64,000 nucleotides of DNA from an uncultured Planctomycetales bacterium (GCA_964603585.1 CAZRVK010000004.1:64438-128437); one strand, 5' to 3'. Counted from the stretch's first letter, positions 7,171-27,916 are shown. Notes: a model not told the origin generated them from the sequence alone. Numbers and translations: made by a program.

Positions 7171-7522
7171 GCCCCCAAAAGAAGAGATCCTGTATTTGAT
7201 CAAAGAAATAGATGTTCATCCTGCCTCAACACAGCGAACGATTTCGGCTAATTTAGGATTTTCCTTAGGCAAAACCAATTATATCCTTAAAGCCCTTATA
7301 AAACGTGGTTTAATTACGGTAAAAAATTTCTCTGCCAATCCGAATAAACTTCAGAAAATTCAATATTCACTTACTAAAAAAGGTATTCAGGAGAGGATCA
7401 ATTTGACCAGCCACTTCCTGGAAAGAAAAGAGATCGAATATAACCGGATGAAACAAGAGTGGGAGCAATTGGTGGGCGGTAAAAATCCAAGTATTTCTTA
7501 CGATAATGTTACTAAAGAATGA
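7160..7522 (+). CDS. Small winged-helix (MarR-like) transcriptional regulator of the kind found at the head of exopolysaccharide loci
   Basis: 120 aa with an HTH-like segment STQRTISANLGFSLGKTNYILKALIKRGLI followed by a wing (NPNKLQKIQYSLTKKG). First gene of the island. Confidence 0.5.
   Translation: MIEQPPKEEILYLIKEIDVHPASTQRTISANLGFSLGKTNYILKALIKRGLITVKNFSANPNKLQKIQYSLTKKGIQERINLTSHFLERKEIEYNRMKQEWEQLVGGKNPSISYDNVTKE

Positions 7523-8545: not shown

Positions 8546-8553
<8 letters not shown>
7519..8553 (+). CDS. Polysaccharide chain-length determinant (Wzz/GumC-like) protein
   Basis: N-terminal TM ([21 protein letters not shown]), a long coiled-coil-like periplasmic region ([39 protein letters not shown]), and a C-terminal TM ([22 protein letters not shown]). 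Confidence 0.5.
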
Positions 8554-10644
<2,091 letters not shown>

Positions 10645-10659: not shown

Positions 10660-11508
10660 ATGTCTATTTTTATCATTGCCGAGATTGGAATTAATCATAA
10701 TGGTGATATTGGCATTGCAAAACAGTTGATTGATGTCGCCAAAGATGCAGGCGCTGATGCTGTTAAATTTCAAAAAAGGACAATCGATCTGGTTTATACC
10801 AAGGAAATGCTTGATTCTTTCAGGGAAAGCCCCTGGGGAAATACGCAGAGGGCGCAAAAAGAAGGCCTTGAGTTCGGTTTAGATGAGTATAAACAGATCG
10901 ATGCCTATTGCCGGCTTAAGGGTATAGAATGGTTTGCTTCCGCCTGGGATATTGAAAGCCAGAAATTCCTGCGGCAGTTTGATTGCAACTATAATAAGAT
11001 AGCTTCGGCAATGATCGTTTACGAAGATTTACTTAAACAGGTTGCTTCCGAGAAAAAGCATACTTTTATTTCTACCGGCATGACTACATCTATGCATATC
11101 GACCGGGCAGTCGAAATATTCCGGCAGCAAAACTGTCCTTTTGAATTGATGCATTGCGTTTCGGTTTATCCGATGGAGGATGAGGAGGCTAATTTAAATT
11201 GCATTAAGACCTTGCGTGAACGTTATAAGTGTAATGTCGGTTATAGCGGGCATGAAGTTGGTTTAGCTGTATCCTATGCCGCATCGGCATTAGGAATTAC
11301 TTCTTTAGAGCGGCATATTACATTGGACCGGGCGATGTATGGTTCTGATCAAGCGGCTTCGGTAGAACCCATGGGTTTTAAAGCGCTTGTAGGTGCAATT
11401 CGTAAGATTGAGAAGGCAATGGGCAACGGCGAAATAAATATTAACCATAGGGAATTAACCATCGCAAAGAAATTGCGGGCGCATATCCCATTCGAATCTC
11501 ATCGCTAA
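10660..11508 (+). CDS. NeuB-family nonulosonic acid synthase paralog, short form without a C-terminal SAF domain
   Basis: IIAEIGINHNGDIGIAKQLIDVAKDAGADAVKFQKRT (NeuB TIM-barrel N-terminus). It is 282 aa and ends before the SAF/antifreeze-like domain present in the 22230 paralog. Good SD (aaggag) upstream. Confidence 0.6.
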   Translation: MSIFIIAEIGINHNGDIGIAKQLIDVAKDAGADAVKFQKRTIDLVYTKEMLDSFRESPWGNTQRAQKEGLEFGLDEYKQIDAYCRLKGIEWFASAWDIESQKFLRQFDCNYNKIASAMIVYEDLLKQVASEKKHTFISTGMTTSMHIDRAVEIFRQQNCPFELMHCVSVYPMEDEEANLNCIKTLRERYKCNVGYSGHEVGLAVSYAASALGITSLERHITLDRAMYGSDQAASVEPMGFKALVGAIRKIEKAMGNGEININHRELTIAKKLRAHIPFESHR

Positions 11509-11518
11509 GGGCAGGATA

Positions 11519-12214
11519 ATGTTGAATATTGTAGCGGTCATTTTAGCGCGAGGCGGGTCTAAAGGGATCCCGGGCAAGAATATAGTTGATTTTTGCGGGA
11601 AGCCTTTGATTGTCTGGACAATTGAGCAATTGCAGCGTGTAAAGAAAATACGTTCTATTTGGGTCAGCTCGGATAGTAAGGATATACTTGAGATCGGCAA
11701 ACGTTATGGTGTCGAGCCTATATTACGGCCAGAACAGATTTCAGGTGATTCTGCTACTTCGGAATCAGGGTGGCTGCATGCCTTGGAATATATTAACAGT
11801 AAAGGCATAAGTACAGATATTATTTTTGCTCCACAGGTTACATCCCCATTACGGACCACAGATGATATTGAACGGGGATTGTATGATTTCAAGCAAAAGA
11901 ACTGCGATTCTCTTTTTTCGGCCAGTATTGCCGCAGATTTATTTTTCTGGGAGGAACTGCCCGGCAATGCATTGCGGAGTATAAATTACGATTATACTAA
12001 CCGGAAACGCCGGCAGGAGATACCTGTGCAGTATATAGAAAACGGATCTTTCTATGTCTTTACTCCGGAAATAATAAGGCGCTGTAATAACCGTCTTGGC
12101 GGGAAAATTGGCATTACCCTGATGGAATATTGGAAGATGTTTGAAATAAATTCTATTGAGGACTATAAAATTTGCGAGGCCTTGATGAAAGCTTTTATAT
12201 TAAAGACAACATGA
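11519..12214 (+). CDS. CMP-nonulosonic acid synthetase (acylneuraminate cytidylyltransferase family), copy 1
   Basis: VAVILARGGSKGIPGKNIVDFCGKPLIVWTIEQ, the CMP-NeuAc/CMP-KDO-type nucleotidyltransferase N-terminus. Confidence 0.75.
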   Translation: MLNIVAVILARGGSKGIPGKNIVDFCGKPLIVWTIEQLQRVKKIRSIWVSSDSKDILEIGKRYGVEPILRPEQISGDSATSESGWLHALEYINSKGISTDIIFAPQVTSPLRTTDDIERGLYDFKQKNCDSLFSASIAADLFFWEELPGNALRSINYDYTNRKRRQEIPVQYIENGSFYVFTPEIIRRCNNRLGGKIGITLMEYWKMFEINSIEDYKICEALMKAFILKTT

Positions 12215-12248
12215 AGGTTTTTAAAACCGTAAAAACAGAGGATTTCTT

Positions 12249-13226
12249 ATGGCTAAAGAAAATGAACGGTTAGTATGGTTTAACGGTGAGTTGATACCGG
12301 AATCCCAGGCAAGAATATCGATTTATGATTCTGCTCTTATGTTTGGCGATATGGTTTTTGAAATGACAAGATCATTCAATAAAGTGCAATTTAAACTTCG
12401 CCAGCATCTGGAACGTTTGTATGCATCAATCAGATATCTCCGGATCCCCTTGGAAATGAGTATTGACAGGATGCAAGAGTGTGTGTATGAGACAATTGAG
12501 GCAAACGATCCCTTATTTAATGATGATGATGAGCACAGATTAATGATTGACGTCTCGCGGGGGATCCTTTCAATCTATCAGGGTGTTGTTGGTGTTCATA
12601 AGGGGCCGAACGTTATAATTGCGGATTTCCCTTTAAGGTGGACAGTTGCTGGGATGGGGAAGCTGTTTGACACGGGGATTAATGCAGTTATCCCTTCTCA
12701 AAGGGCAATCCCTGCCCAGTTACTTGAACCAAAAGTTAAGAATCGCAGCAGGATACATTATCTTATGGCGAATATAGAGGTTTCCCGTTATGCAGGAGAA
12801 AATAATTGGGCGTTGCTTGTTGATCCGGATGGTTTTATTGCGGAAGGTACGGGAGATAATTTCTTTATTGTCAAAGACAAAGTGATCATTACTCCAGAGC
12901 CACGGAATATTTTAAGAGGGATCAGCCGCGCGTATATATTTGATTTAGCAAGAAAAATCGGTATTGCCTGTATCGAAAAGAATATTGAACCTTATGATGT
13001 TGTTAACGCGGATGAAGCATTTATGACCGGTACCCCTTTTTGTGCCCTGCCGGTAACATCATTGAACGGTATTTCGATTGGCAGTGCTTCAATGGGGATG
13101 ATTACTTCTCAATTATTGGATTGCTGGAGTAAAGAAGTCGGGGTGGATATAATCGCTCAAATAAAGAACTGGGATTCCAGCCGGCTCATGCCGATATCGA
13201 AAGGCCCTTCGCCGTATTCTTTTTGA
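12249..13226 (+). CDS. Fold-type IV PLP-dependent aminotransferase (branched-chain/D-amino-acid aminotransferase-like)
   Basis: Overall length and motifs of class IV aminotransferases (..GDMVFEMTR.., ..ADEAFMTGT..). Unusual inside a sugar cluster. Confidence 0.55.
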   Translation: MAKENERLVWFNGELIPESQARISIYDSALMFGDMVFEMTRSFNKVQFKLRQHLERLYASIRYLRIPLEMSIDRMQECVYETIEANDPLFNDDDEHRLMIDVSRGILSIYQGVVGVHKGPNVIIADFPLRWTVAGMGKLFDTGINAVIPSQRAIPAQLLEPKVKNRSRIHYLMANIEVSRYAGENNWALLVDPDGFIAEGTGDNFFIVKDKVIITPEPRNILRGISRAYIFDLARKIGIACIEKNIEPYDVVNADEAFMTGTPFCALPVTSLNGISIGSASMGMITSQLLDCWSKEVGVDIIAQIKNWDSSRLMPISKGPSPYSF

Positions 13227-13246
13227 GCATGGGAAGCGGGTGTTTA

Positions 13247-14044
13247 ATGAAATATTTTAACGGGTTATATTGTATACATCTTGAATTGACCAGTCGCTGC
13301 AATAAGAATTGCTGGATGTGTGGAAGAAGGAAAATAGACCGGGATTATCCAGAATTAGCTCTTGAATATGGCGATATGGATTTTGATTTAGTAAAGAAGA
13401 TCGCTTTTCAGCTGCCAGAAAACATTGTAGTGCAATTCCATAATAATGGTGAACCTTTATGTTATCCGCGGTTTGGCGAGGCGGTAAGGTTATTTAAAAA
13501 GCAGATAAAATGTGTTGATACAAATGCCAAATTGATCGTTCAAAAAGCGGATGAAATAATCTCTAACTTAGATACGATAACCATATCGGTTATAGAGAAT
13601 GATCCAGAGATGGATGAACAGTATCGATTAGTTAAGCAATTTTTAAAACTGAAAAAAGATAAAAAGCCGAATGTAATTTATCGTTGTTTAGGGCAGATTG
13701 ATGTAAAACCATGGAAAGAGTTAGGCGGAATAATTGCGACCAGGACATTGCATAATCCGTTAGGCAGTTTTCAGTATAGAAGATCTCCTACTGTGCCAGA
13801 GATAGGGATATGTCTGGAGATATTAAATCATCTGGCAATCAATAGGTTGGGAAAGGTTTCTCTTTGTGTTCGTTTTGACCCTAAAGGTTTGGGGATTATC
13901 GGAGATGCTAATCTGATGCCATTGGTGGATATCTGGAATAGCGAGAAAAGGAAGGAATGGGTTAAACATCATATTCAGGGGAATAGGGTTAAAATACCTT
14001 TTTGCAGTCATTGTGATTATTGGGGGGTAGCAACTTCTTCATGA
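13247..14044 (+). CDS. Radical SAM protein (small; CxxxCxxC plus C-terminal Cys pairs)
   Basis: LTSRCNKNCWMCGRR contains CX3CX2C, and a C-terminal CSHCDYWG. The track start at 13223 is TTG; the ATG at 13247 is preferred. Confidence 0.5.
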   Translation: MKYFNGLYCIHLELTSRCNKNCWMCGRRKIDRDYPELALEYGDMDFDLVKKIAFQLPENIVVQFHNNGEPLCYPRFGEAVRLFKKQIKCVDTNAKLIVQKADEIISNLDTITISVIENDPEMDEQYRLVKQFLKLKKDKKPNVIYRCLGQIDVKPWKELGGIIATRTLHNPLGSFQYRRSPTVPEIGICLEILNHLAINRLGKVSLCVRFDPKGLGIIGDANLMPLVDIWNSEKRKEWVKHHIQGNRVKIPFCSHCDYWGVATSS

Positions 14045-14097
14045 ACATTATGATATCGTGAAAAATTGCTGTCGTAAATGAAAAAGGATGGTTATGA

Positions 14098-15633
14098 GTG
14101 AAGAAGATATTATTGATTTATCCTAATCAGCAGGAAGTTGGCTGTAAACCCCCGGCTGTTTCTACTTTAGCCGCGGTAGTTAAAAATGCCGGATATGGTT
14201 TTAAGCTGTTAGATTTAACCCCCTATGAAATTATCTCCGGGATAACTTCCAAGGAAATAGGAGAAGAACGGTTTGAATACAAGAAGGTATCTAATCCGGA
14301 ACGTTTTCCTGCGCGGATTAAAATGTCTTTCGATGATTTCAAAGAAATACTGCGCAAGGAGATAGAGTCGTACCATCCTGATCTGATAGGCTTTACCACT
14401 ATTATTCATTTCTTTTCTTTAGCGAAGAAGCTGGGTGAATTTATCAAGACTTTTTCATCTGTGCCTATCATTGTTGGTGGAGTGCATCCTACAGCTTGTC
14501 CGGAAGATGTTATCCGGGAATCCTTCGTTGATATTATCTGTATTGGTGAGGGAGAAGGGGCGTTGCTGGATTTAATGAATCGCATTGATGAGGGTAAAGA
14601 CATAACTCGGATAAAAAACCTTTGGGTAAAGCAAAATAACAAAATATATAAGAATCCCTTGCGTCCGATCATTGAGGATATAGATACTCTGCCGGTTCCA
14701 GATTGGGATGTATTCCCCCAAATACAGTTTTATAAGCCTTATATGGGGCACGTATATAAGTATGGGGATATTGAAAGAAGCCGGGGATGTCCTTTCAGCT
14801 GCGGTTATTGTATTAATCCTTATACGCATGCGTTATACGGCAAGAAAAGCTTTTACCGGGTAAAATCAACCGCTCGGATGATGGAAGAGCTAACGGTTCT
14901 TAAGGATAAATATAAATTAGAGTTCATCAGGTTTTGGGATGAGTTATTTGTCGCTAACCCTGATAAATTTGCCGAATTCAGCCGGGCATATGCCAAGCAA
15001 ATTAAACTGCCTTTTACGATAGAGACAACAGGTGAAAGCATTAATGACGAAACAGCTCGTCTGCTTAAGGATATGAATTGCCAAAGTGCCAGTATTGGAT
15101 TTGAGACCGGCAGTGAAGATTTACGTAAACGGATCTTAAATAAAAACACAAAAAATGCTGTTTATTTGAATGCTTTTAAGACTTTAAAGAAATTCGGCAT
15201 TCGCACGGTTGCCTTTATCATGCTGGCTATCCCGGAAGATAGCGAAGCGAATTATTGGCAAACAATACGTTTCCTTCAAGAGGCAGAAGCTGATACTATT
15301 TGCGTAAGTTTTTTATATCCCTTCCGGAATACCGCTATTCGCAATAATTATGCGCAGATATATCAAAAACTTTATCCTCACATTGATGAAGATATCGCAA
15401 ATACTAAGTTGGATATTTATCCGGTGTGTACAGATGTTCCTAAGGAAAGGTGGTTAGAATTTGGCAATTTAATGCCGATTTATAAGGAAATGCCTGAATG
15501 GCTTTGGCCCTTGATCAATAAGTGCGCTAAATCAAAAGATCCCAAAGATGCGGAATATTTGAGATTTCTGAAACAAATAATTTATAAGAAGAAATACGGT
15601 GAATGGCCTGATAATGATGATAACAGATCGTGA
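14098..15633 (+). CDS. B12-binding-domain radical SAM enzyme (class B radical SAM, putative methyltransferase), copy 1
   Basis: N-terminal cobalamin-binding Rossmann-like domain (KKILLIYPN..VGGVHPTACPED) and radical SAM site RSRGCPFSCGYCIN. GTG start. Confidence 0.7.
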   Translation: MKKILLIYPNQQEVGCKPPAVSTLAAVVKNAGYGFKLLDLTPYEIISGITSKEIGEERFEYKKVSNPERFPARIKMSFDDFKEILRKEIESYHPDLIGFTTIIHFFSLAKKLGEFIKTFSSVPIIVGGVHPTACPEDVIRESFVDIICIGEGEGALLDLMNRIDEGKDITRIKNLWVKQNNKIYKNPLRPIIEDIDTLPVPDWDVFPQIQFYKPYMGHVYKYGDIERSRGCPFSCGYCINPYTHALYGKKSFYRVKSTARMMEELTVLKDKYKLEFIRFWDELFVANPDKFAEFSRAYAKQIKLPFTIETTGESINDETARLLKDMNCQSASIGFETGSEDLRKRILNKNTKNAVYLNAFKTLKKFGIRTVAFIMLAIPEDSEANYWQTIRFLQEAEADTICVSFLYPFRNTAIRNNYAQIYQKLYPHIDEDIANTKLDIYPVCTDVPKERWLEFGNLMPIYKEMPEWLWPLINKCAKSKDPKDAEYLRFLKQIIYKKKYGEWPDNDDNRS

Positions 15634-15651
15634 GCTGCTTAGTACTTTATC

Positions 15652-17040
15652 ATGAAAATACTTTTGGTTGTATATGACAATGATTCTTGTGTTTCTGTAT
15701 TTCCGTTAGGGACTGCTTATATCGCAGCGGCTTGCCGTAATGCCGGACATGATGTCGAGATATATAATCAGGATGTTTATCATTGGCCAGAATCACATTT
15801 GGTTGAATTCTTAAACCGAGAACATTTTGATGCTGTTGGATTGGGCATAATCGGCGGGTATTATCAATACCGAAAATTATTATATATCTCTGAGGCAATA
15901 AACAAAGTAAAGAAAAAGCCTTTTTATATCCTGGGAGGTCATGGTCCCTCTCCGGAACCGGAGTTTTTCCTAAGAAAAACGAAAGCAGATGCGGTAGTTA
16001 TTGGTGAAGGGGAATCAACGATAGTTGATCTGCTTGAGGCGATTGAGAATAATAATGATTTATCTTCTGTGGAAGGTATAGTTTATCGTGATGGCGACAA
16101 ATGCAGTACAACGGCTATTAGAAAGCCAATCGCGGATATCGATAAAGTTATTTATCCTGCCTGGGATTTATTCCCGATTGATCACTACGTGCTTCTAAGA
16201 GACCCGGGAATGGTCAATAGCGATAGGTATATGGCAGTCATAACCGGAAGAGGGTGTCCTTTTAGCTGCAATTTTTGCTATCGGATGATGCCAGGATTTA
16301 GGCCAAGATCGATCGATAGTATCATAGAAGAAATTCGTATATTGCAGTTGGACTACGGCATCACGTATATCGAGTTTGTGGATGAGCTTTTGATGAGTTC
16401 TCTGCAGAGGACTATAGAACTTTGCGAGAGTTTTATAAAAGCAAATATTAAGTTGAAATGGAATTGCAATGGGCGTCTTAATTATGCGAAGCCTGATGTT
16501 TTAGCTCTGATGAAAAGAGCAGGCTGTGTTTTCATAAATTATGGTATCGAATCTTTGGATGAGACAGCTTTGAAGGCGATGAATAAAGCACTTACAGTTG
16601 ATCAAATCGTTAATGGTATAGATAATACCTTAAAGTCAGGAATAAGCCCGGGGTTCAACATAATTTTCGGCAATATTGGAGAGAACCGGGAGTCCTTGGC
16701 TAAAGGGGTAGATTTCTTGCTCAAATATGATAATCATGCTCAAATGCGGACAATAAGGCCGGTTACTCCTTATCCGGGTTCTGCGCTTTACTATTATGCA
16801 ATAAAAAAAGGTTTATTGAGGGATTGCCAGGATTTCTATGAGAACAAACATATTAATTCCGATCTGCTTTCGGTTAATTTTACAAGTTTAAGTGACGATG
16901 ATTTTCATGGCCTGCTTTATGAGGCAAACGAAAAACTAATCAGGAATTACTATTCCGCGAAACTTGATTCGACTTTAGACGCTGCAAGAAAACTATATTT
17001 GGAGCGTGATGTGTCTTTTCGCGGCTTCAGGCAGACTTAA
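15652..17040 (+). CDS. B12-binding-domain radical SAM enzyme, copy 2
   Basis: MKILLVVYDN..LGGHGPSPEPEFF (B12 domain) and TGRGCPFSCNFCYR. Confidence 0.7.
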   Translation: MKILLVVYDNDSCVSVFPLGTAYIAAACRNAGHDVEIYNQDVYHWPESHLVEFLNREHFDAVGLGIIGGYYQYRKLLYISEAINKVKKKPFYILGGHGPSPEPEFFLRKTKADAVVIGEGESTIVDLLEAIENNNDLSSVEGIVYRDGDKCSTTAIRKPIADIDKVIYPAWDLFPIDHYVLLRDPGMVNSDRYMAVITGRGCPFSCNFCYRMMPGFRPRSIDSIIEEIRILQLDYGITYIEFVDELLMSSLQRTIELCESFIKANIKLKWNCNGRLNYAKPDVLALMKRAGCVFINYGIESLDETALKAMNKALTVDQIVNGIDNTLKSGISPGFNIIFGNIGENRESLAKGVDFLLKYDNHAQMRTIRPVTPYPGSALYYYAIKKGLLRDCQDFYENKHINSDLLSVNFTSLSDDDFHGLLYEANEKLIRNYYSAKLDSTLDAARKLYLERDVSFRGFRQT

Positions 17041-17068
17041 ATGAAATGTATGAGAAATTTAAGGGGGG

Positions 17069-17932
17069 ATGATGCCTAAGTTGAAATCATGTTACCTTTG
17101 TAAAAGTACCAAGCTTAAGGAAAAAAATGGCCGGGTTCGGGATAATCCTAATTTAAAAATCATGGAGTGCAGTGAGTGCGGATTAGTTTTCTTATCCTGC
17201 TTCGATCATATCGGTAACAATTTCTACGAACAGTCATTGATCCATGAAAAACCTGTAAATATCCAATCTTTGCTTAAAGATACATCTTGTGATGATGAGA
17301 GAAGATTTACTTGCCACAGGAGGCTGATTGAGAATAAATCTTTGCTTGATTTTGGCTGTGGTGCTGGGGGGTTTCTCTGCCGTGCCCGATCAACGGCTGC
17401 TTCGGTTGTTGGCGTTGAGGTCGAGATGCGTTTTAAGCCCCATTTTCAGAAAGAAAACATAGATGTATTCACCAGTATTAACGATGTAAGTGGCCGGTTT
17501 GATGTAATAACTATTTTTCACGTGTTAGAGCATATGAAGGATCCGGTAGATACTCTACGCAGATTGTCGGGAAAGTTAAGCGAAAACGGCTGTATAATCG
17601 TAGAGGTCCCATCCTCTGATGATGCGCTTTTAAAACTCTATGAGAATCCGGCTTTTTCGCAATTTGCTTATTGGAGCTGTCATTTATTCCTTTTTAATCC
17701 CGGTTCTCTTTCGCGTATTGCCAGGAAAGCGGGATTAAAGGCAAATTATCTTAAGCAAATCCAGAGATACCCGCTATCAAACCATTTATATTGGCTGGCA
17801 AAGGGAAAATCAGGCGGACATAAGATATGGGGCTTCTTGGATTCGCATGAGCTTGATACGGCATACGAAAAACAACTGGCTGCACTTGGGCTTTGTGATA
17901 CGATTGTGGGAAGTTTTTCAAAAATCAAATAA
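17069..17932 (+). CDS. Class I SAM-dependent methyltransferase with an N-terminal Cys4 zinc ribbon
   Basis: CYLCKST...CSECG zinc ribbon; motif I LLDFGCGAGGF; motif post-I/II FDVITIFHVLEH. Confidence 0.6.
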   Translation: MMPKLKSCYLCKSTKLKEKNGRVRDNPNLKIMECSECGLVFLSCFDHIGNNFYEQSLIHEKPVNIQSLLKDTSCDDERRFTCHRRLIENKSLLDFGCGAGGFLCRARSTAASVVGVEVEMRFKPHFQKENIDVFTSINDVSGRFDVITIFHVLEHMKDPVDTLRRLSGKLSENGCIIVEVPSSDDALLKLYENPAFSQFAYWSCHLFLFNPGSLSRIARKAGLKANYLKQIQRYPLSNHLYWLAKGKSGGHKIWGFLDSHELDTAYEKQLAALGLCDTIVGSFSKIK

Positions 17933-17949
17933 TTATCTATTAAACGAGG

Positions 17950-19446: not shown

Positions 19447-19482
19447 TGGATACGAACAATAATTTTACGAGGGACATGATAT

Positions 19483-20466: not shown

Positions 20467-20498
20467 GACAGATACATTATAGACAAAATCAAAAGGGG

Positions 20499-21575
20499 AT
20501 GCTTGCGTTTATGGAACGACTAAAAAGAACTATTATTCCTTCCGGCCAAACAATAAAAAATGTTTTAAAACATATGGATGCTGTAGGCGAGAAGACAGTT
20601 TTCATCGTTGGAAGTAAAAACAGGCTTTTGGGGAGTGTTACGGACGGGGATATACGCAGATGGATATTGCGGGGCAAGAGCTTGATGCAAGATGTTGTTG
20701 AAGTCATGAATCCTAATCCGATATGCTTGACCTCGGGGTTTGAGCCTGAAATGGCTAAAACACTCATGATCGAGAATTCAGTAGAGTGTTTGCCGGTAAT
20801 AAATGATTCGAAGGAGGTTGTTTCTGCTATTCGCTGGATAGATCTTTTTGAGGATAAGTTAAAGAAAATTAAACCTCTGAAATCTGATGTTGTGATTATG
20901 GCTGGAGGGGAAGGTGTACGGTTACATCCTTTCACAAAAATACTTCCTAAACCTTTGATGCCGATAGGCGACAAGCCGATCATTGAGATAATCATAAACC
21001 GTTTCTTTGATTTTGGCTGTACTGATTTTTACCTCTCTTTGAATTATAAGTCCAGCATAATAAAGGCGTATTTCAGTGATTTTGAGCATGATTACAAGAT
21101 CAATTATATCATAGAAAGCAAGCCGTTAGGTACTGCTGGTAGCCTGAATTTGCTTAAGCATAAAATTAAAAAAACATTTTTTGTCAGCAATTGCGATATT
21201 TTAATTGAGGCTGATTACGCGGATATATTAAAATTCCACCGCCAAAGAAAAAATAAGATTACTATGGTCAGCTCAATGAAGAATTTTACGATTCCTTACG
21301 GGATCTGCGAGATCTATGATGGGGGTGTATTGAAAAGCATACAAGAAAAACCCGAGTATGACTTTTTAGTGAATACAGGGATGTACGTTTTAGAGCCCGA
21401 GGTGATCGATGATATACCAAAAAACAAATTTTACAATATTACTGATCTGATAAACGCATATTTAAGCGAATCAAAAAAGGTGGGTGTTTATCCAGTATCT
21501 GAAAAGTCATGGATTGATATTGGGCAAATGGAAGAGATGCAGAATACGTTGCGTAACATAAAGATCAATGAATAA
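20499..21575 (+). CDS. CBS-pair-containing sugar-1-phosphate nucleotidyltransferase (PtmE-like)
   Basis: N-terminal CBS domains (VTDGDIRRWIL.., ..CLPVINDSKEVVSAIRWIDL) fused to a nucleotidyltransferase domain (VIMAGGEGVRLHPFTKILPKPLMPIGDKPIIE). This architecture is known from PtmE in the Campylobacter legionaminic acid pathway. Confidence 0.6.
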   Translation: MLAFMERLKRTIIPSGQTIKNVLKHMDAVGEKTVFIVGSKNRLLGSVTDGDIRRWILRGKSLMQDVVEVMNPNPICLTSGFEPEMAKTLMIENSVECLPVINDSKEVVSAIRWIDLFEDKLKKIKPLKSDVVIMAGGEGVRLHPFTKILPKPLMPIGDKPIIEIIINRFFDFGCTDFYLSLNYKSSIIKAYFSDFEHDYKINYIIESKPLGTAGSLNLLKHKIKKTFFVSNCDILIEADYADILKFHRQRKNKITMVSSMKNFTIPYGICEIYDGGVLKSIQEKPEYDFLVNTGMYVLEPEVIDDIPKNKFYNITDLINAYLSESKKVGVYPVSEKSWIDIGQMEEMQNTLRNIKINE

Positions 21576-22227
21576 TGAACGTGTAGTGGTGTTTGCCAAG
21601 GAAAAATCTGGTTTACATCAGGCATTAAATTTCTTACGCAGGAATTTTTGTCGGGTCGATCTATTCAAAGGGGATCGTTTGGATGCCTTTCCAAGCAAGG
21701 CATATGACCGTAAGTATGATATTTGTGTATCGTATATGTCTCCCTGGGTCATCCCAGGTGATTTCTTATCCGGAATTAGTGGGTTTTCCATTAATTTTCA
21801 TCCCGGCACGCCCAAATACCGGGGTATTGGATGTACGAATTTTGCGATCTATAACAATGAGCGAAAATACGGAGTAACAGCTCATTTAATGGTGCCGAAT
21901 ATAGATTCCGGAAAAATAATCGATGTGAAATATTTCAGGATCTTGCCCGGAGATTCTTTGCTTGATGTAACTAAGAAATGTTACCAGTATATCCTTATGC
22001 AGTTTTATGATATTTTTAAATATTATTTTAAGCATGCAAGATTGCCTTTAAGTCATGAAAAATGGAGCCGACACTTGTACACGCGGGCAGAACTTGACCG
22101 CCTATGCCGGATCACGCCTAAAATGCCTTTATCTGAAGTTAAACGCCGGATTAAAGCCACAGATTTCCCCAATATGCCAAAGGCCTATGTTAAGATGTTC
22201 GGCTATCGTTTTGAATATAAGGAGTAG
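21568..22227 (+). CDS. Formyltransferase-family protein (Fmt/PurN-like catalytic domain)
   Basis: INFHPGTPKYRGIGCTNFAIYN...GVTAHLMVPNIDSGKII resembles the formyl-transferase core (HxSLLPxxRG...D). Confidence 0.5.
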   Translation: MNNERVVVFAKEKSGLHQALNFLRRNFCRVDLFKGDRLDAFPSKAYDRKYDICVSYMSPWVIPGDFLSGISGFSINFHPGTPKYRGIGCTNFAIYNNERKYGVTAHLMVPNIDSGKIIDVKYFRILPGDSLLDVTKKCYQYILMQFYDIFKYYFKHARLPLSHEKWSRHLYTRAELDRLCRITPKMPLSEVKRRIKATDFPNMPKAYVKMFGYRFEYKE

Positions 22228-22229
22228 GG

Positions 22230-23234
22230 ATGCAGAAGGTATTTATTATTGCGGAAGCAGGAGTTAATCATAACGGTTCAGTGAATCTGGCTAAGAAAAT
22301 GGTTGCTGCAGCAGCTTCTGCAGGAGCAGATGCGGTAAAATTCCAGTCTTTCTGTGCTGAAGAGATGGTTTCTATAAATGCGCCTAAGGCCGGGTATCAA
22401 AAAATAACTACCGGTGACGGCCAGAGCCACTTTGAAATGATAAAAAATCTGGAACTTGATACAAACGCCCACAGGCAATTGTATGCATATTGCCAAAAGA
22501 GAAAGGTGGTTTTTCTTTCTTCTCCCTTTGATTTAAAAAGTGTGGCGTTGTTAAATCGTTTAGGGTTAAAGATCTTTAAAATTCCTTCGGGAGAAATAAC
22601 TAACCTTCCGCTTTTATGCAAAATAGGATCCTTACGAAAAAAAGTAATTTTATCGACGGGCATGGCAAGCTTAAATGAGATTAAAGAGGCGATTGGGATT
22701 TTACGCAAAAGTGGCACGAAGAGTAAAGATATAACGATATTGCATTCGAATACGGAGTATCCTACGCCATTTGAAGATGCGAATTTGTTGGCAATGCTTA
22801 AGATAAAAGACCAGTTTAATCTTCGAGTTGGTTATTCTGACCATACCCCGGGGATCGAGGCAGCGATTGCGGCTGTAGCGTTAGGCGCGGTGGTAATTGA
22901 AAAACATTTTACCCTTGATAAGGATATGCTTGGTCCCGATCATAAGGCAAGTCTGGATTCTGCAGAGTTAAAGGCTTTGGTAAAAGCAGTACGTAATGTC
23001 GAAAAGGCCCTTGGGTTACCCCTTAAGAAAGCAACCCCTTCTGAACTGCCTAATCTTATGATTGTACGTAAGAGCATCGTTGCGGCAAGAGATATAAGCA
23101 AAGGCGAAACTTTTGATGAAAAGAATTTAGCTGTTAAACGCCCAGGAATGGGAATAAGCCCAATGAATTGGGAAAGAATATTGGGACGGAAGGCAAAAAG
23201 AGATTTTCTAAAGGATGAAATGATAGGGGTATGA
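22230..23234 (+). CDS. Nonulosonic acid synthase (NeuB/LegI/PseI family), full length with SAF domain
   Basis: FIIAEAGVNHNGSVNLAKKMVAAAASAGADAVKFQSF, and a C-terminal SAF-like KRPGMGISPMNWERILGRKA. Confidence 0.8.
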   Translation: MQKVFIIAEAGVNHNGSVNLAKKMVAAAASAGADAVKFQSFCAEEMVSINAPKAGYQKITTGDGQSHFEMIKNLELDTNAHRQLYAYCQKRKVVFLSSPFDLKSVALLNRLGLKIFKIPSGEITNLPLLCKIGSLRKKVILSTGMASLNEIKEAIGILRKSGTKSKDITILHSNTEYPTPFEDANLLAMLKIKDQFNLRVGYSDHTPGIEAAIAAVALGAVVIEKHFTLDKDMLGPDHKASLDSAELKALVKAVRNVEKALGLPLKKATPSELPNLMIVRKSIVAARDISKGETFDEKNLAVKRPGMGISPMNWERILGRKAKRDFLKDEMIGV

Positions 23235-24397
23235 TAAGAAAACTTTGTGTAGTAACCGGAAGTAGGGCAGAGTATGGCTTGTTTTATCCATTACTCATGG
23301 AAATAAGAAACAAAGATTTCTGTAAATTGCAAATTGTGGTTACAGGAATGCATTTGTCGAAAGCTTATGGTTTTACCTGCAAGGAAATATTAGATGACGG
23401 TTTTAGGATAAATGATAGAGTTAGGATCCCTTTGCATGATAATACTCCGGGCGGGGTCACGAAGGCAGTTGGCTCTGGGATAATTGGTTTTGCCGATGTC
23501 TTTAAACGGATAAGGCCGGATTTTATAATCCTGATCGGAGATAGATTTGAAACCTATGCGGCAGCAGTCGCAGCTTTTTTCGCGCAAATCCCAATAATAC
23601 ATATCCATGGAGGTGAGTTAACCGAAGGGGCTATTGATGATGCCTTGCGTCATTCGATCACGAAAATGAGCATTTTACATTTTACGTCCACTGAAGGTTA
23701 TCGGCGCAGAGTTATTCAGCTTGGGGAAAATCCCGACAAGGTATTTAATGTAGGGGCACTTGGAGTGGATAACATTAAGCATTTGAAGCTGCTGGCCCGT
23801 GATGAGTTAGAAGATGCGCTAAAGTTTAGCATGGACGGAAAGTTGATCTTAGTAACCTTTCATCCGGTAACTTTAGAACCTAATACTTCTCGAAACCAGT
23901 TTGAAGAGATTTTGTCTGCTTTAAGATCTGTGAAGGGTTTGAAGGTAGTTTTTACTAAGCCAAATTCTGATATGAACGGAAAGATTATAAGCGATTGTAT
24001 TGATCGATTCGTCAAAAATAATCCCGGCAGGGCTGTTGCTTTTGATTCCTTAGGCCGGATAAAATATTTGTCTCTGCTTAAATATACGGATGTTATGCTG
24101 GGAAATTCTTCAAGCGGAATCATTGAAATGCCTTATTTCGGTAAGCCGACAATTAATATCGGTGATCGCCAAAAGGGCAGAATCATAGCCGATAGCGTTA
24201 TTCAATCCGGCCCAACTAAAGCGGCAGTACTTAAAAGCTTGAAAAAAGCGTTTTCTTCAGAGTTCAGGCAAAAATGCCGAAAGGTTTCCAGTCCTTATGG
24301 TAGCGGAGTGGCTGCGCGGAGGATCGTTGTGATACTTAAAAAAGAGATGCCTAAGGTCAAAACCCTGAAAAAAAGCTTTTACGATTTTCGGGCTTAA
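23231..24397 (+). CDS. Hydrolysing UDP/GDP-N-acetylhexosamine 2-epimerase (NeuC/LegG family)
   Basis: CVVTGSRAEYGLFYPLLMEI, HIHGGELTEGAIDDALRHSITK, LGNSSSGIIEMPYFGKPTINIGDRQKGR. Confidence 0.8.
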   Translation: MIRKLCVVTGSRAEYGLFYPLLMEIRNKDFCKLQIVVTGMHLSKAYGFTCKEILDDGFRINDRVRIPLHDNTPGGVTKAVGSGIIGFADVFKRIRPDFIILIGDRFETYAAAVAAFFAQIPIIHIHGGELTEGAIDDALRHSITKMSILHFTSTEGYRRRVIQLGENPDKVFNVGALGVDNIKHLKLLARDELEDALKFSMDGKLILVTFHPVTLEPNTSRNQFEEILSALRSVKGLKVVFTKPNSDMNGKIISDCIDRFVKNNPGRAVAFDSLGRIKYLSLLKYTDVMLGNSSSGIIEMPYFGKPTINIGDRQKGRIIADSVIQSGPTKAAVLKSLKKAFSSEFRQKCRKVSSPYGSGVAARRIVVILKKEMPKVKTLKKSFYDFRA

Positions 24398-24418
24398 TAA
24401 ACAGGAGAGTCTGCGGTC

Positions 24419-25120
24419 ATGTATGCGAATAGGAGAATTTTGGCTTTGATCCCGGCCCGTGGCGGTTCAAAGGGAGTAGTACATAAAAATACCCGTTTAG
24501 TTGCCGGTAAGCCTCTTATATACTGGACAATTGAAGAATCAAGAAAGTCGAGGTTTATTGACCGGATAATTCTATCATCCGAAGACCCTCGGATCATAGC
24601 GATTGGCCGTAAGCTTGGAGTTAGTGTACCTTTTATCAGACCGTCTGAATTGGCAAGGGATGATGCATCAATGGGCGGAACGGTTTTACATGCAATATCG
24701 GCTTTAAAAGAAAAGTTCGACTATTTGGTTCTTTTGCAGCCGACTTCTCCATTAAGGATTACCGAGGATATTGATGGTTGCATCGCGAAATGTATTGATA
24801 AATCTGCTCCCGCATGTGTTACGGTCACAATCCCGGATAAGAACCCATTCTGGATGTATTCTCTGGATGCCAAAGAGAGGTTAGTTCCGGTTATTAAAAA
24901 TACAGGCCCGGTGTTATTAAGGCAGCAGATCAAGGGTATCTATGAACTTAACGGTGCAGTTTATGTAGTAAAGGTGCCATGGTTCATAAAAAAAAAGGTA
25001 TTTATCGCAAAAGATACCGTGGCATACCCTATGCCTGGGTTCAGATCGATTGATATTGACACAGAACTTGATTTAAAGATTTCGGATATGCTCTTAAAAA
25101 GCCGTGAACTAATGAAGTAA
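24419..25120 (+). CDS. CMP-nonulosonic acid synthetase, copy 2
   Basis: ILALIPARGGSKGVVHKNTRLVAGKPLIYWTIEE, LLQPTSPLR. Confidence 0.8.
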   Translation: MYANRRILALIPARGGSKGVVHKNTRLVAGKPLIYWTIEESRKSRFIDRIILSSEDPRIIAIGRKLGVSVPFIRPSELARDDASMGGTVLHAISALKEKFDYLVLLQPTSPLRITEDIDGCIAKCIDKSAPACVTVTIPDKNPFWMYSLDAKERLVPVIKNTGPVLLRQQIKGIYELNGAVYVVKVPWFIKKKVFIAKDTVAYPMPGFRSIDIDTELDLKISDMLLKSRELMK

Positions 25121-25140
25121 CTAAATGGGATCATTATAAA

Positions 25141-25995
25141 ATGGGTAAGAACATCAGGATCATAGCACGCCTGGATATAAAAGGGCCTAATCTTGTTAAG
25201 GGGATACATCTGGAAGGTTTGCGTGTCCTGGGGAAACCAGAACAATTCGCCAAGTATTATTATCAGGCCGGTGCGGATGAGCTTATGTATGTAGATGTTG
25301 TAGCCAGCTTGTATGGCCGCAATAATCTGCGCGAAATCGTTACAAAAACCGCCAAAGAGATATTTATCCCTCTTACTGTTGCTGGAGGGATTCGGAGTAT
25401 CGAAGATATTAGAGAGATGTTGCGCGCGGGAGCGGATAAGGTATCTTTAAACACTGCAGCCATCAAAAACCCGGATTTGATAAAGCAGGCTGCGAGGAAA
25501 TTTGGTTCTTCAACGATTGTTGTCACAATTGAAGCGATTAAACATGAAGACGGTTCTTATTTTGCATATACGGATAATGGACGGGAATATACGGCGGTAG
25601 AGGTTTTAGACTGGGCTAGACAGGTTGAGACTCTTGGCGCCGGTGAGATTGTAATTACCTCTGTTGATAGAGAGGGGACAGGAGAGGGCTTTGATCTTGC
25701 ATTAACAAAAATGGTTTCCCAGGCTGTGTCAATCCCGGTTATTGCGCATGGAGGCGCTGGTAAGGTAGAAGATGTGAAGGATGTTATTCAAGATGGGAAG
25801 TCGGATGCTGTTGCCTTAGCATCAATTCTGCATTATGAATTCATAGCCAAGAATCGAATATTAGATGATCTTGGAAAAGAAGGCAATGTAGAGTTTTTAA
25901 AGAGCGGGCGCACTTTTTCAAAGATCAAAATTGCGACCTTTCCGGAAATAAAGACATATCTTCATCGAAATAACATATCGTGCCGCCATAATTGA
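25141..25995 (+). CDS. HisF-like imidazole glycerol phosphate synthase cyclase homolog (WbuZ-type, acetamidino formation)
   Basis: IIARLDIKGPNLVKGIHLEGLRVLG...SLNTAAIKNPDL...HGGAG, the HisF TIM-barrel signature. Located in a glycan locus next to HisH-like and amidotransferase genes. Confidence 0.75.
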   Translation: MGKNIRIIARLDIKGPNLVKGIHLEGLRVLGKPEQFAKYYYQAGADELMYVDVVASLYGRNNLREIVTKTAKEIFIPLTVAGGIRSIEDIREMLRAGADKVSLNTAAIKNPDLIKQAARKFGSSTIVVTIEAIKHEDGSYFAYTDNGREYTAVEVLDWARQVETLGAGEIVITSVDREGTGEGFDLALTKMVSQAVSIPVIAHGGAGKVEDVKDVIQDGKSDAVALASILHYEFIAKNRILDDLGKEGNVEFLKSGRTFSKIKIATFPEIKTYLHRNNISCRHN

Positions 25996-26021
25996 ATGTT
26001 ATTCTAAACAGGAAATATTGT

Positions 26022-26690
26022 ATGTCAAAAGTTGCGATTGTAGACTACGGAGCAGGGAATTTATTTAGCGTTGAACAGGCTTGTAGAAGTGTTGGGCTGT
26101 CGGCAGTGGTTACCTCGGATCCGCAAGTGATACTTTCCGCGGATGCCTTGATTTTGCCCGGTGTGGGTGCGTTTGCGGATGCTATGCACAATCTTGAAAA
26201 ACTTAATTTGGTCAAGTCTCTTAAGGATTTTAGTCGTACAGGCAAGCCTTTTATGGGTATATGTCTCGGGATGCAGCTTTTATTTTCCAAAAGCAGCGAA
26301 TTCGGTGATCATGCAGGTCTTAATCTTATTGATGGCGAAGTCGTAAAGTTTGCTTGCCGCAATGCAAACGGGGAAAAGATCAAAGCCCCGCAGATTGGAT
26401 GGAATCAGATCTTTTCTCCTTCAGATTCAAAGGATATCTGGGATTCTACCCCTTTAACCGCGGTTAAAAATGGCGCCTTCATGTATTTTGTACATTCGTT
26501 CTATGTCTTGCCGCAAACGCCCGAGAATGTTCTTTCAATAACCGATTATCAGGGGATCGAATATTGTTCGGCAGTTATAAAGAAAAATATCTTTGCAGTC
26601 CAGTTCCATCCTGAAAAAAGTGGTGAGGAAGGATTAAAAATTTATCATTCCTGGATGAAGAAAATCAAAACCCATAAAAAGGGAATATAA
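26022..26690 (+). CDS. HisH-like glutamine amidotransferase (WbuY-type)
   Basis: MSKVAIVDYGAGNLFSV, LPGVGAFADAM, GICLGMQLL (catalytic Cys), VQFHPEKSG. The track start at 25992 is TTG; the ATG at 26022 is preferred. Confidence 0.75.
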   Translation: MSKVAIVDYGAGNLFSVEQACRSVGLSAVVTSDPQVILSADALILPGVGAFADAMHNLEKLNLVKSLKDFSRTGKPFMGICLGMQLLFSKSSEFGDHAGLNLIDGEVVKFACRNANGEKIKAPQIGWNQIFSPSDSKDIWDSTPLTAVKNGAFMYFVHSFYVLPQTPENVLSITDYQGIEYCSAVIKKNIFAVQFHPEKSGEEGLKIYHSWMKKIKTHKKGI

Positions 26691-27916
26691 TGACTGAAAA
26701 ATTAGAAGCCAAATACGGCCTTCCGGAAAAGGTGATCTTTTGTAAACGTTGTGTCATGTCCAACCAGCGGCCTGCTTCAACAGTTGAGTTTAAGCACACC
26801 ATAAAAAGCCAAAAAACCACCATGAAAATAGATGTGGATGGAGTATGCGATGCCTGCCGGCAGGCAGATACGAAAGAGCAGATTGATTGGAAGAAAAGGG
26901 AAGATGAACTCTTTGTATTACTGGATAAGTATAGACGTAAAGATGGGTTTTATGATTGCATTGTTCCCGGCAGCGGGGGTAAAGATAGTGCGTTCCAGTC
27001 GCATATTTTAAAGTATAAATATGGAATGCATCCGTTAACTGTAACCTGGCCGCCGGTTTTATATACGGATTACGGGTATCGCAATTTTAGGAAATGGATA
27101 GAGATCGGAGGCTTCGATAATATAAGTTTTAATCAAAACGGGAAGGTTATCAAATTACTTACGCGTTTATCTATAGAAAATCTTCTTCATCCATTCCAAA
27201 CCTTCATGCTGGGGCAAAAGGTGCTTGCTCCTAAAATCGCCTTGCGATATAAAATACCACTCATTTTTTACGGTGAAAATGAAGCGGAATATGGTAACCC
27301 CATAGCGGATAATGCATCTTCTTTGCGGGATAAAGCATATTTCAGTATGAAGAACATCGACGAGATATATCTTGGGGGAGTCTCAATAGGGGAAATAAGA
27401 AAACGATATGATGTTGATTTAAACGATTTAATGGCGTATTTGCCTCCGCCGGCTGAAGAATTGGCAAAATCCGATATCCAGGTCCATTATTTGGGGTATT
27501 ATTTAAAATGGGTCCCTCAAGAAGTCTATTATTATGCTGTGGAAAATACTGGATTTAAAGCCAGACCGTTCAGGACTCAAGGAACATACAGTAAATATAA
27601 TAGTATTGACGATAAAATCGACGATCTGCATTATTATACAACTTTCATAAAATTCGGCATTGGCCGAGCCACCTATGATGCCTCGCAGGAAATCAGGAAT
27701 AAACATCTTACCCGTGAAGAAGGTATGGCTTTGGTAAAACGTTTTGATGGCGAATTTCCAGGCCGATATTTCAGCGAGGTAATGGATTATATCGGGATCG
27801 ATCCGGAAAGGTTTATGCAGTTATGCGATGACTTCCGTTCTCCGCATCTATGGGCGAAGATAGACGGACAATGGAAGCTAAGGCATACGGTTAATCTTGA
27901 TGGGGTTAATGATTAA
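26690..27916 (+). CDS. N-acetyl sugar amidotransferase (WbuX/PseA/WbpG family, PP-loop ATPase)
   Basis: N-terminal Cys cluster CKRCVMSN..CDACRQ and PP-loop CIVPGSGGKDSAFQSH. Adjacent to the HisH/HisF homologs, as in acetimidoyl-sugar pathways. Confidence 0.7.
   Translation: MTEKLEAKYGLPEKVIFCKRCVMSNQRPASTVEFKHTIKSQKTTMKIDVDGVCDACRQADTKEQIDWKKREDELFVLLDKYRRKDGFYDCIVPGSGGKDSAFQSHILKYKYGMHPLTVTWPPVLYTDYGYRNFRKWIEIGGFDNISFNQNGKVIKLLTRLSIENLLHPFQTFMLGQKVLAPKIALRYKIPLIFYGENEAEYGNPIADNASSLRDKAYFSMKNIDEIYLGGVSIGEIRKRYDVDLNDLMAYLPPPAEELAKSDIQVHYLGYYLKWVPQEVYYYAVENTGFKARPFRTQGTYSKYNSIDDKIDDLHYYTTFIKFGIGRATYDASQEIRNKHLTREEGMALVKRFDGEFPGRYFSEVMDYIGIDPERFMQLCDDFRSPHLWAKIDGQWKLRHTVNLDGVND

Follow-up and report, generated by a model that had tools for sequence, protein, structure and literature searches.

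A polysaccharide operon of an uncultured Planctomycetales bacterium with two putative CMP-ulosonic acid branches, one centred on a SAF-less synthase and a radical-SAM protein

We analysed a stretch of 64,000 nucleotides from an uncultured Planctomycetales bacterium (GCA_964603585.1 CAZRVK010000004.1:64438-128437; hereafter the window, with positions counted from its first letter) and found that its polysaccharide operon of more than 50 kb reasonably probably holds two independent branches, each ending in a 3-deoxy-2-ulosonic acid activated with cytidine monophosphate (CMP): branch B, of the legionaminic acid (Leg) type, and branch A, which is uncharacterised. The gene content of both branches, their family placement, the conservation of catalytic residues, the fold matches and the co-occurrence of genes were observed, and from these we infer the substrates, products and step order proposed below. 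Nonulosonic acids (NulOs) shape the recognition of bacterial and archaeal surfaces by phages, hosts and other cells. To our knowledge, few biosynthetic routes to them have been worked out, namely those to neuraminic acid (Neu), ketodeoxynonulosonic acid (Kdn), Leg, pseudaminic acid (Pse) and their epimers.

The original prediction, made from the sequence of 10660-27916, had described two separate NulO modules, module A (10660-13226) and module B (19483-27916). All twelve genes that it named are present where it had placed them, with the domains it ascribed to them (strong domain matches), and they lie on the + strand, as do all further genes of the modules and of their surroundings from 7160 to 27916 that are described below. 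Its reading of two distinct synthase/CMP-transferase pairs held as well. The synthases of modules A and B are 34% identical and the cytidylyltransferases 30%, too little for recent duplicates, and in a neighbour-joining tree of synthases with reference sequences the two copies fall in separate clades. Since the clades differ and both copies are intact, a single clade with one pseudogene is not what was found. What did not survive is the picture of module A as a three-gene standard NulO unit: these genes are part of a wider cassette with an adjacent BtrN-like radical S-adenosylmethionine (SAM) gene. The start at 10660 stands, while the end moves to at least 14044; the cassette core spans 10660-14044 and probably extends to 17932. 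Five intermodule genes (13223-19446), an upstream Gmd/Fcl pair and the fact that module B has neither LegC nor LegH had been omitted.

Four components make up the recurrent unit to which module A belongs: a NeuB-family synthase without a SAF domain, a CTP_transf_3 cytidylyltransferase, an aminotransferase of class IV or III and, at about 266 amino acids (aa), a radical-SAM/SPASM protein. In the window, its members are the 282-aa synthase NeuB282 (10660-11508; Pfam NeuB, E=3.6e-71), which would condense phosphoenolpyruvate (PEP); the NeuA-like CMP-ulosonic acid synthetase CTaseA (11519-12214; CTP_transf_3); the fold-type IV aminotransferase AT4 (12249-13226; Aminotran_4, E=1.2e-45), which resembles branched-chain aminotransferases (BCATs) and R-amine transaminases; and a 265-aa radical-SAM/SPASM protein (13247-14044 from its ATG, in an open reading frame (ORF) that opens at 13223). 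CTaseA matched CMP-sialic acid synthetases in the PDB at E=2e-26 to 2e-17 and KdsB at 9e-7, and its far closer resemblance to NeuA than to KdsB favours a nine-carbon-type ulosonic acid over 3-deoxy-D-manno-octulosonic acid (Kdo). AT4 scored below cut-off on all NCBIfam models and matched BCATs (E=3e-47) and R-amine transaminases (about 1e-27) in the PDB; it keeps the Schiff-base Lys and the equivalent of BCAT Arg97, with Tyr95 replaced by Glu. Elsewhere, a class III aminotransferase substitutes for class IV, usually together with a glyoxalase-fold protein and a methyltransferase.

In order to count the partners of the synthase, ORFs within 6 kb of it were clustered across 82 non-redundant loci (compared homologous loci carry L-numbers such as L002 and L013); a smaller neighbourhood set comprised 48 loci. 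Among the 82, a cytidylyltransferase was found in 67, a short-chain dehydrogenase/reductase (SDR) in 41, a xylose-isomerase-like TIM barrel in 34, a SIS isomerase and an aminotransferase in 32 each, an MT287-type methyltransferase in 16, the radical-SAM/SPASM protein in 14 and a B12-binding radical-SAM protein in 11. SIS_2 isomerase, xylose-isomerase-like TIM, SDR and HAD partners were considered as clues to a sugar-phosphate substrate and set aside, being frequent elsewhere with none near module A. An Omnitrophota metagenome-assembled genome (MAG; L013) keeps the whole order Wzz-Gmd-Fcl-NeuB-cytidylyltransferase-AT4-radical-SAM-B12a-B12b-methyltransferase, with 33% identity in the Wzz-like protein and 58-82% in the other nine genes, and the part from Gmd to the radical-SAM gene recurs both there and in an archaeal locus (L094). 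At least 583 relatives of NeuB282 were confirmed in a scan of one genome per species. The best 80 of these (50-85% identity) come from more than 15 phyla and other lineages, among them Pseudomonadota, Planctomycetota, Omnitrophota, Elusimicrobiota, Leptospirales, Acidobacteriota, Actinomycetota, Bacillota, SAR11, SAR86 and the candidate phyla radiation (CPR). The reach of this unusually conserved cassette synthase, at least 583 species-level genomes, extends from SAR11 and SAR86 to CPR and a Thermoplasmatota archaeon. The combination of SAF-less NeuB, BtrN-like radical-SAM protein and aminotransferase, its breadth across phyla and the alternation of radical-SAM and SDR genes described below appear to be undescribed, and a full-text literature search found no paper joining nonulosonic acids or NeuB with radical SAM.

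The radical-SAM/SPASM protein is a candidate alcohol dehydrogenase of the BtrN/SpeY kind. BtrN was its top PDB match, aligned over the full length (E=8.5e-7), and a Foldseek search with its AlphaFold2 (AF2) model returned BtrN first (E=3.5e-6) and SpeY second. The family numbers 1779 proteins at 70-79% identity, in which a CX3CX2C motif (C18, C22, C25) and six other cysteines are invariant; four of the latter, C189, C207, C253 and C256, align with C169, C187, C232 and C235 of BtrN, which we take to be ligands of the auxiliary [4Fe-4S] cluster. The substrates of BtrN and SpeY are carbohydrate-like rings on which a secondary alcohol is oxidised; in butirosin synthesis the resulting ketone is then transaminated. 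The window protein shares with BtrN/BtrS (butirosin) and SpeY (spectinomycin) its size, its cysteine pattern and, in its surroundings, an adjoining aminotransferase, whereas identity is only about 17% and its gene belongs to a CMP-ulosonic acid cassette of a polysaccharide operon instead of an aminoglycoside cluster.

Co-occurrence ties this protein to the cassette. All three long contigs found via the radical-SAM protein, one of them from a Thermoplasmatota archaeon (L094), show NeuB, cytidylyltransferase and aminotransferase genes beside it, and an aminotransferase is present in 12 of the 14 radical-SAM loci (p=1e-4), the exceptions being a 2-kb fragment and a CPR genome. Among the 32 aminotransferase loci, an SDR gene occurs in none of the 12 with the radical-SAM gene as opposed to 15 of the 20 without it (p=3e-5); the remaining five radical-SAM-less, SDR-less loci are contigs of at most 11 kb. 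Such exclusivity would be the pattern of a non-orthologous replacement of the redox step, as expected if an SDR can stand in for the radical-SAM protein. A swap of this sort between a radical-SAM enzyme and a dehydrogenase is known from BtrN and the NAD-dependent NeoA. That in branch A a radical-SAM dehydrogenase supplies the ketone to the aminotransferase is a tentative assignment, which we place just short of an even chance. If true, it would amount to a new way of adding nitrogen to an ulosonic acid and to a second example of the BtrN/NeoA-type swap.

Alternatively, the radical-SAM/SPASM protein could be an epimerase or another radical tailoring enzyme, and the ketone for AT4 could come from elsewhere, from an AprD4-like B12 enzyme or from the 4-keto GDP sugar made by Gmd. 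In favour of this, 20 of the 32 aminotransferase loci do without the radical-SAM gene, the confidence of the radical-SAM model is moderate, the Gmd gene stands just ahead of the cassette in the window as well as in L013 and L094, and the best PDB match of B12b (15652-17040), described below, is the diol dehydratase AprD4 (E=2.9e-21). However, the top matches in both sequence and fold are the dehydrogenases BtrN and SpeY, the gene is mutually exclusive with SDR dehydrogenases, and minimal cassettes such as L002, which have neither a B12 enzyme nor Gmd, still hold AT4 and the radical-SAM gene. We consider a role outside alcohol oxidation rather unlikely.

The synthase itself sets branch A apart from known NulO routes. 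In canonical NulO synthases the SAF domain supplies R314 to the partner's active site; NeuB282 has no SAF domain according to Pfam, and its sequence ends 24 residues past the NeuB domain. It reached 247 bits on the NeuB model (cut-off about 400) and 195 bits on the PseI model (cut-off 340). A neighbour-joining tree placed the NeuB282 clade apart from the SAF-bearing synthase of the window, PseI, Neisseria meningitidis NeuB (NmNeuB), SpsE and 6ncs, a SAF-less Leptospira protein that was its best PDB match at 36% identity, with PseI second. When its residues were mapped onto NmNeuB numbering, NeuB282 was found to retain E25, K53, Q55, K129, S132, S154, Y186, S213, H215, E234, H236 and D247, with no variation within the clade in the metal ligands H215 and H236 or in the PEP-binding residues. 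In all members D214 is replaced by Gly; the clade further has Trp for F112 and, in 65 of the 68 members with ≥56% identity, Met for E134.

An ordinary second NulO pathway with a short synthase, leading to Pse, Neu5Ac or Kdn, would fit the NeuB-domain match, the second place of PseI among the PDB matches and the NeuA-like cytidylyltransferase, and two synthases, two CMP synthetases and several NulOs coexist in Leptospira (PMC3438082). Domain and model searches, however, found no PseB, PseC, PseH, PseG or second NeuC in or near module A, the synthase stays far below the cut-offs of both models and belongs to a separate clade with the E134-to-Met and D214-to-Gly replacements, and the cassette shows tight linkage to an aminotransferase (fold IV or class III) and a radical-SAM gene, both absent from known NulO routes. 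This makes an ordinary second pathway very unlikely. A Kdn-type core before tailoring is a further alternative for module A. Dual NulO modules as such are already known, and the second module of Leptospira (PMC3438082) resembles module A in its SAF-less synthase, its own CMP synthetase and its extra aminotransferase beside a Leg pathway. It differs in that 6ncs lies outside the NeuB282 clade, the L. interrogans enzyme has a fused phosphatase and a radical-SAM partner is not described there. We regard it as probable that the product of branch A is a CMP-ulosonic acid other than Neu, Leg and Pse, likely a CMP-activated amino-ulosonic acid.

Two further observations concern SAF-less NeuB genes in other genomes. 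In the cultured isolate Alteromonas sp. a30 (L052, NZ_JABEPE010000011.1), the SAF-less NeuB is 65% identical, and behind it come genes for a HAD-like hydrolase, a cytidylyltransferase, three SDRs and a xylose-isomerase-like TIM barrel. At 24 loci, an antisense ORF of about 231 aa runs inside the SAF-less NeuB gene (L062 9962-10657, - strand), most likely as a by-product of strong gene conservation and not as a real gene.

Directly after the cassette core lie two B12-binding radical-SAM genes, B12a (14098-15633; Pfam B12-binding and Radical_SAM; PDB matches CysS, E=6e-10, and AprD4, E=3e-9) and B12b (with the same two domains), and a gene for the SAM-dependent methyltransferase MT287 (17069-17932; Methyltransf_23, E=3e-21). 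CysS is a methyltransferase and AprD4 a radical-SAM sugar diol dehydratase; no NCBIfam model scored above cut-off for B12a or B12b. B12a is 78% identical in L013, while B12b has homologues of 61-73% identity behind the cassette in L012, L013 and L016 and another, at 63% identity, beside Leg and acetamidino genes in L090. Judged by these neighbourhoods, B12a and B12b are associated with NulO clusters and not assignable to one branch. In all, the operon contains four B12-binding radical-SAM genes (14098-15633, 15652-17040, 34302-35852 and 41187-42824), none of which matches a characterised family; the last stayed below cut-off on both the HpnJ model (237 bits) and the AprD4 model (138 bits).

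We propose that in branch A the SAF-less synthase would condense PEP with an aldose or aldose phosphate, the BtrN-like radical-SAM enzyme would oxidise a sugar hydroxyl to a ketone, the fold-IV aminotransferase would turn this ketone into an amine and the NeuA-like enzyme would form the CMP sugar. The B12 enzymes and the methyltransferase might add optional C-methylation and/or AprD4-like deoxygenation, followed by N- or O-methylation. The Shewanella pathway to 8-amino-8-deoxy-Kdo (Kdo8N) uses the alcohol oxidase KdnB and the aminotransferase KdnA, followed by CMP activation. The logic proposed for branch A is the same, with oxidation of a hydroxyl on the ulosonic acid, transamination and CMP activation, whereas module A has no KdnB-type metal alcohol dehydrogenase, its synthase is of the NeuB family instead of KdsA, and its cytidylyltransferase is NeuA-like and not KdsB-like. 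The upstream genes encode Gmd, a GDP-mannose 4,6-dehydratase (8537-9691; TIGR01472, 542 bits, cut-off 415), and a homologue of the GDP-L-fucose synthase Fcl (9676-10644; PDB GDP-L-fucose synthases, E=1e-67 to 1e-58; 294 bits on the NCBIfam Fcl model, under the cut-off of 500), by their matches a putative standard GDP-L-fucose pair. Gmd and Fcl as the source of the synthase's aldose were considered and not adopted, with the pair in only 2 of the 48 cassette loci and no GDP-sugar hydrolase.

CMP-ulosonic acids with a C10 backbone, forming a +CH2 series by mass spectrometry, have been described in Magnetospirillum gryphiswaldense with their genes unassigned (bioRxiv 10.64898/2026.04.20.719630). 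B12-radical-SAM genes in NulO clusters are candidates for these genes, and their co-location with the cassette offers a testable genetic hypothesis for higher-carbon CMP-ulosonic acids. That the cassette and its B12 partners make a new class of CMP-ulosonic acids, radical-SAM-aminated and with an extended or C-methylated skeleton, which would explain the C10 compounds of M. gryphiswaldense, is a speculative idea that we think unlikely to hold as a whole.

Module B is highly probably a Leg-type pathway of the GDP route, as its family matches suggest. It opens with a LegB-type nucleoside diphosphate (NDP)-GlcNAc 4,6-dehydratase (19483-20466; TIGR04180, 471.3 bits, E=1e-141, cut-off 475) and a PtmE-like protein with CBS and NTP_transferase domains (20499-21575), a putative sugar-1-phosphate guanylyltransferase of an architecture also found in the Leg clusters L090-L092. 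After the formyltransferase-like FT219 (21568-22227) come a full-length NulO synthase of the NeuB/LegI type (22230-23234; NeuB and SAF domains; TIGR03569, 487 bits, cut-off 400; on the PseI model 301 bits, under the cut-off of 340), a hydrolysing 2-epimerase of the NeuC/LegG type (23231-24397; TIGR03568, 458 bits, cut-off 236) and a LegF-like CMP-NulO synthetase (24419-25120; CTP_transf_3). The PtmE-type and LegF-type genes match by architecture, with no equivalog model above its cut-off. While the Leg-type reading of module B and its acetamidino trio stood, the module as originally drawn is incomplete. Domain searches found no DegT aminotransferase (LegC) within 19483-27916 and no LegH hexapeptide or NeuD-type protein in or near module B; a LegC-family gene lies 25 kb away, and a formyltransferase occupies the place of LegH. 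This candidate LegC (53367-54518, + strand; TIGR04181, 340 bits, cut-off 420) is the only full-length DegT aminotransferase of the window and adjoins a Polysacc_synt_2/PglF-like dehydratase gene (54529-56364).

FT219 is a 219-aa protein resembling sugar 4-N-formyltransferases, with a partial Formyl_trans_N match and the GDP-perosamine N-formyltransferase WbkC as its best PDB sequence match (E=1.4e-7). Its family comprises about 650 proteins of about 219 aa found in NulO clusters, and the formyltransferase catalytic triad N76, H78 and D113 is invariant among 25 relatives. The AF2 model has a predicted local distance difference test (pLDDT) score of 95.6, and its top 20 Foldseek matches, including WbkC, Rv3404c, VioF, WbtJ and Shewanella and Pseudomonas enzymes, are all NDP-4-amino-4,6-dideoxyhexose 4-N-formyltransferases (template-modelling (TM) score about 0.76). 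Relatives of FT219 in L090, L091 and L092 sit between LegB (or LegB and LegC) and a run of NeuB, NeuC, PtmE and cytidylyltransferase genes, two of the three loci also carrying HisH, HisF and WbuX. All three contexts are thus Leg-type clusters, and no LegH-type hexapeptide acetyltransferase was found near the relatives in any of them. The formyltransferase proposed in the original prediction gains good support from the triad, the model, the fold matches and these contexts. On sequence and model grounds, FT219 is predicted to catalyse the N-acylating step in place of LegH, formylating the hexose 4-amine that later becomes N7 of the NulO. As a genetic signature, FT219 in LegH's place could allow N-formyl Leg-type sugars to be predicted from sequence.

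Formylation of the free 4-amine, and hence of N7, would be more economical than a swap at N5, because the window has no deacetylase gene, and on balance we lean, if only slightly, towards a formyl group on N7 in branch B. Formylated Leg derivatives are documented elsewhere. 5-N-formyl-Leg occurs in Halorubrum sp. PV6, with a candidate formyltransferase in the cluster (PMC6137143), and Ca. Kuenenia is reported to make formylated CMP-NulOs and to have a Leg-like cluster with a deacetylase and a formyltransferase, for which an N5 swap was proposed (bioRxiv 10.64898/2026.04.20.719630). Like the window, both carry a formyltransferase gene in a Leg-type cluster, with formylation at the nucleotide-sugar level, as predicted for the window; unlike them, the window has no deacetylase and an added acetamidino trio, and both arrangements meet in L091, which does have a deacetylase. 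In this locus (8001-10211), an FT219-like 214-aa gene and a 297-aa gene with Formyl_trans_N and C domains flank a PIG-L deacetylase, an arrangement like that of Kuenenia which suggests a di-N-formyl or N5-swapped product. With Brucella WbkC, VioF, Rv3404c and WbtJ, FT219 shares fold and Asn-His-Asp triad, and the substrates of WbkC are of the GDP-linked 4-amino-6-deoxy type, whereas FT219 is only 17-22% identical to these enzymes, has a shorter N terminus and forms a separate family.

The acetamidino trio is encoded by contiguous or overlapping genes for a WbuZ/HisF-like cyclase subunit (25141-25995; TIGR03572, 275 bits, cut-off 300; His_biosynth, E=1.6e-65), a WbuY/HisH-like glutaminase subunit (25992-26690; TIGR01855, 204 bits, cut-off 105) and a WbuX-family PP-loop N-acetyl-sugar amidotransferase (26690-27916; TIGR03573, 361 bits, cut-off 203; PP-loop SGGKDS). 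Adjacency and the synteny in L090 and L091 point to the branch B sugar as its target. Branch B would then proceed from the PtmE-like guanylyltransferase through LegB 4,6-dehydration to a 4-amination for which the gene at 53367 is the only LegC-family candidate; the WbkC-like FT219 would N-formylate the 4-amine in place of LegH acetylation, LegG would hydrolyse and 2-epimerise, LegI would condense with PEP, LegF would activate with CMP and WbuX/Y/Z would convert the N-acetyl into an acetamidino group. The predicted product is a 5-acetamidino-7-formamido Leg-type sugar. Branch B is a variant of known chemistry, as N-formyl and acetamidino Leg derivatives are already known. Compared with the GDP-Leg route of C. 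jejuni (PtmE, LegB, LegC, LegH, LegG, LegI and LegF, with PtmG for acetamidino formation), module B shares homologues of the LegB, LegG, LegI and WbuX/PtmG families and genes of PtmE-type and LegF-like architecture, whereas it has neither LegC nor LegH, a WbkC-like formyltransferase in the N-acyltransferase slot and HisH/HisF-like amidotransferase partners.

Several points weigh against two complete branches with the chemistry proposed here. On the side of branch A, the window lacks the SIS isomerase, xylose-isomerase-like TIM and SDR genes that often accompany the synthase elsewhere, and the replacement by Met, in the NeuB282 clade, of E134, which has been proposed with two other glutamates of NmNeuB to be catalytic (PMC8208679), would allow for altered chemistry. 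The radical-SAM assignment draws on an AF2 model of moderate quality (pLDDT 71, TM scores 0.49-0.59) and a modest sequence E-value to BtrN. The TIM-barrel gene, like the SDR, is absent from all 12 aminotransferase loci with a radical-SAM gene, and because the two are lost together the replacement may span more than one step. By best PDB match, B12b is nearer to the dehydratase AprD4 than to any methylase, and since its close homologue in L090 adjoins Leg genes, the B12 enzymes may belong to branch B or act in both. On the side of branch B, LegC is missing from the module, the distant LegC-family gene being below cut-off and beside a PglF-like gene, and the acetamidino trio could act on another N-acetyl sugar, given the WecB and PglF/E-like genes of the operon.

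Some of these points would also fit tailoring genes of module A, from the aminotransferase to the methyltransferase, that merely modify module B's Leg-type sugar or provide the 4-amination lacking there, with no separate pathway. Besides the lack of LegC and the B12b homologue of L090, the loci L042, L046 and L078 combine SAF-less NeuB genes with Leg genes. The cassette, however, owns a synthase and a CMP transferase, some loci with NeuB, cytidylyltransferase, aminotransferase and radical-SAM genes have no LegB, SAF-bearing NeuB or NeuC in their flanks, and LegB-like genes occur in 11 and SAF-bearing NeuB genes in 4 of the 48 loci, so that a mere tailoring role for module A is decidedly improbable. 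Decay of NeuB282, for which the missing SAF domain and the Met at E134 might speak, is effectively refuted by its conservation, with close relatives in more than 120 protein clusters at 83-91% identity, all of 281-283 aa, invariant H215, H236 and PEP-binding residues, a crystallised SAF-less relative (6ncs) and about 30% of NeuB sequences lacking SAF (PMC8208679).

Nearly all of the window is one + strand polysaccharide operon (GC about 0.40), whose tightly packed or overlapping genes run from 7160 to beyond 61 kb, while housekeeping genes (the PriA C-terminus, Fmt, two GalT-like proteins and GAPDH) stop near 5 kb. Its nearest named relatives at the protein level are Omnitrophota MAGs. The first gene of the operon encodes a MarR-like HTH_24 regulator (7160-7522; Pfam HTH_24), preceded by the promoter-like TTGACA-16-TAGACT at 7123-7150, and a similar regulator heads the L002 cluster. 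In a scan for terminators and promoters, signals were no commoner than in shuffled sequence, and Rfam and tRNA scans gave no matches and no cobalamin riboswitch. In L016 (5230-6381) and L092 (3779-4812), genes for a winged-helix regulator and, next to it, a NusG paralogue stand ahead of the polysaccharide clusters and may encode an antitermination pair of the LoaP/RfaH type; the window counterpart is the HTH gene alone. The second gene (7519-8553) encodes a Wzz-like, non-enzymatic chain-length protein, recognised by two terminal transmembrane segments and a coiled-coil middle read from the sequence, with no Pfam or NCBIfam match. A flippase of the Wzx/MurJ type (17950-19446; MatE, Polysacc_synt and MurJ matches) is encoded between modules A and B, and further genes of the operon encode glycosyltransferases, a Wzy-like protein, PglC-, PglE- and PglF-like proteins, WecB and several methyltransferases.

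Directly after the acetamidino genes come those for a DltB-like MBOAT (27946-29427; TIGR04091, 149 bits, below cut-off) and then for a membrane-anchored protein of 386 aa with a faint GDSL-like match (29435-30595); by these features the two look like an O-acylation pair. The latter and the proteins encoded at 31429-33072 and 33090-34286 had no significant Pfam or NCBIfam match, even at E=1. The 547-aa protein of 31429-33072 has homologues of 19-24% identity beside SAF-less NeuB and cytidylyltransferase genes in L078 and L084-L087 (Nitrospiraceae, Anaerolineales), which makes it a candidate ulosonic acid transferase. PFTS_polysacc and LIC12162 proteins, the candidate NulO transferases that follow the cassette elsewhere, had no homologue in the window detectable by BLAST. 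Two pairs of ORF calls overlap, 34302-35852 with 35738-36772 (115 bases) and 40261-41409 with 41187-42824 (223 bases), and the downstream genes probably start later than called.

At the edges of the window, tandem GalT/HIT-family paralogues resembling galactose-1-phosphate uridylyltransferase (1877-2902 and 2905-3900) lie upstream of GAPDH, outside the operon, and a papain-family (C1) cysteine peptidase gene (6236-7024) directly precedes the operon. Towards the far end, a gene for a 758-aa protein with a spermidine-synthase-like domain (57630-59906) follows a Wzy/O-antigen-ligase-like gene, and at 59918-61480 a GFO/IDH/MocA oxidoreductase is fused to a hexapeptide acetyltransferase in a WbpB-WbpD-like manner. 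The same fusion recurs in L002 (7597-9189), directly upstream of the module A cassette.

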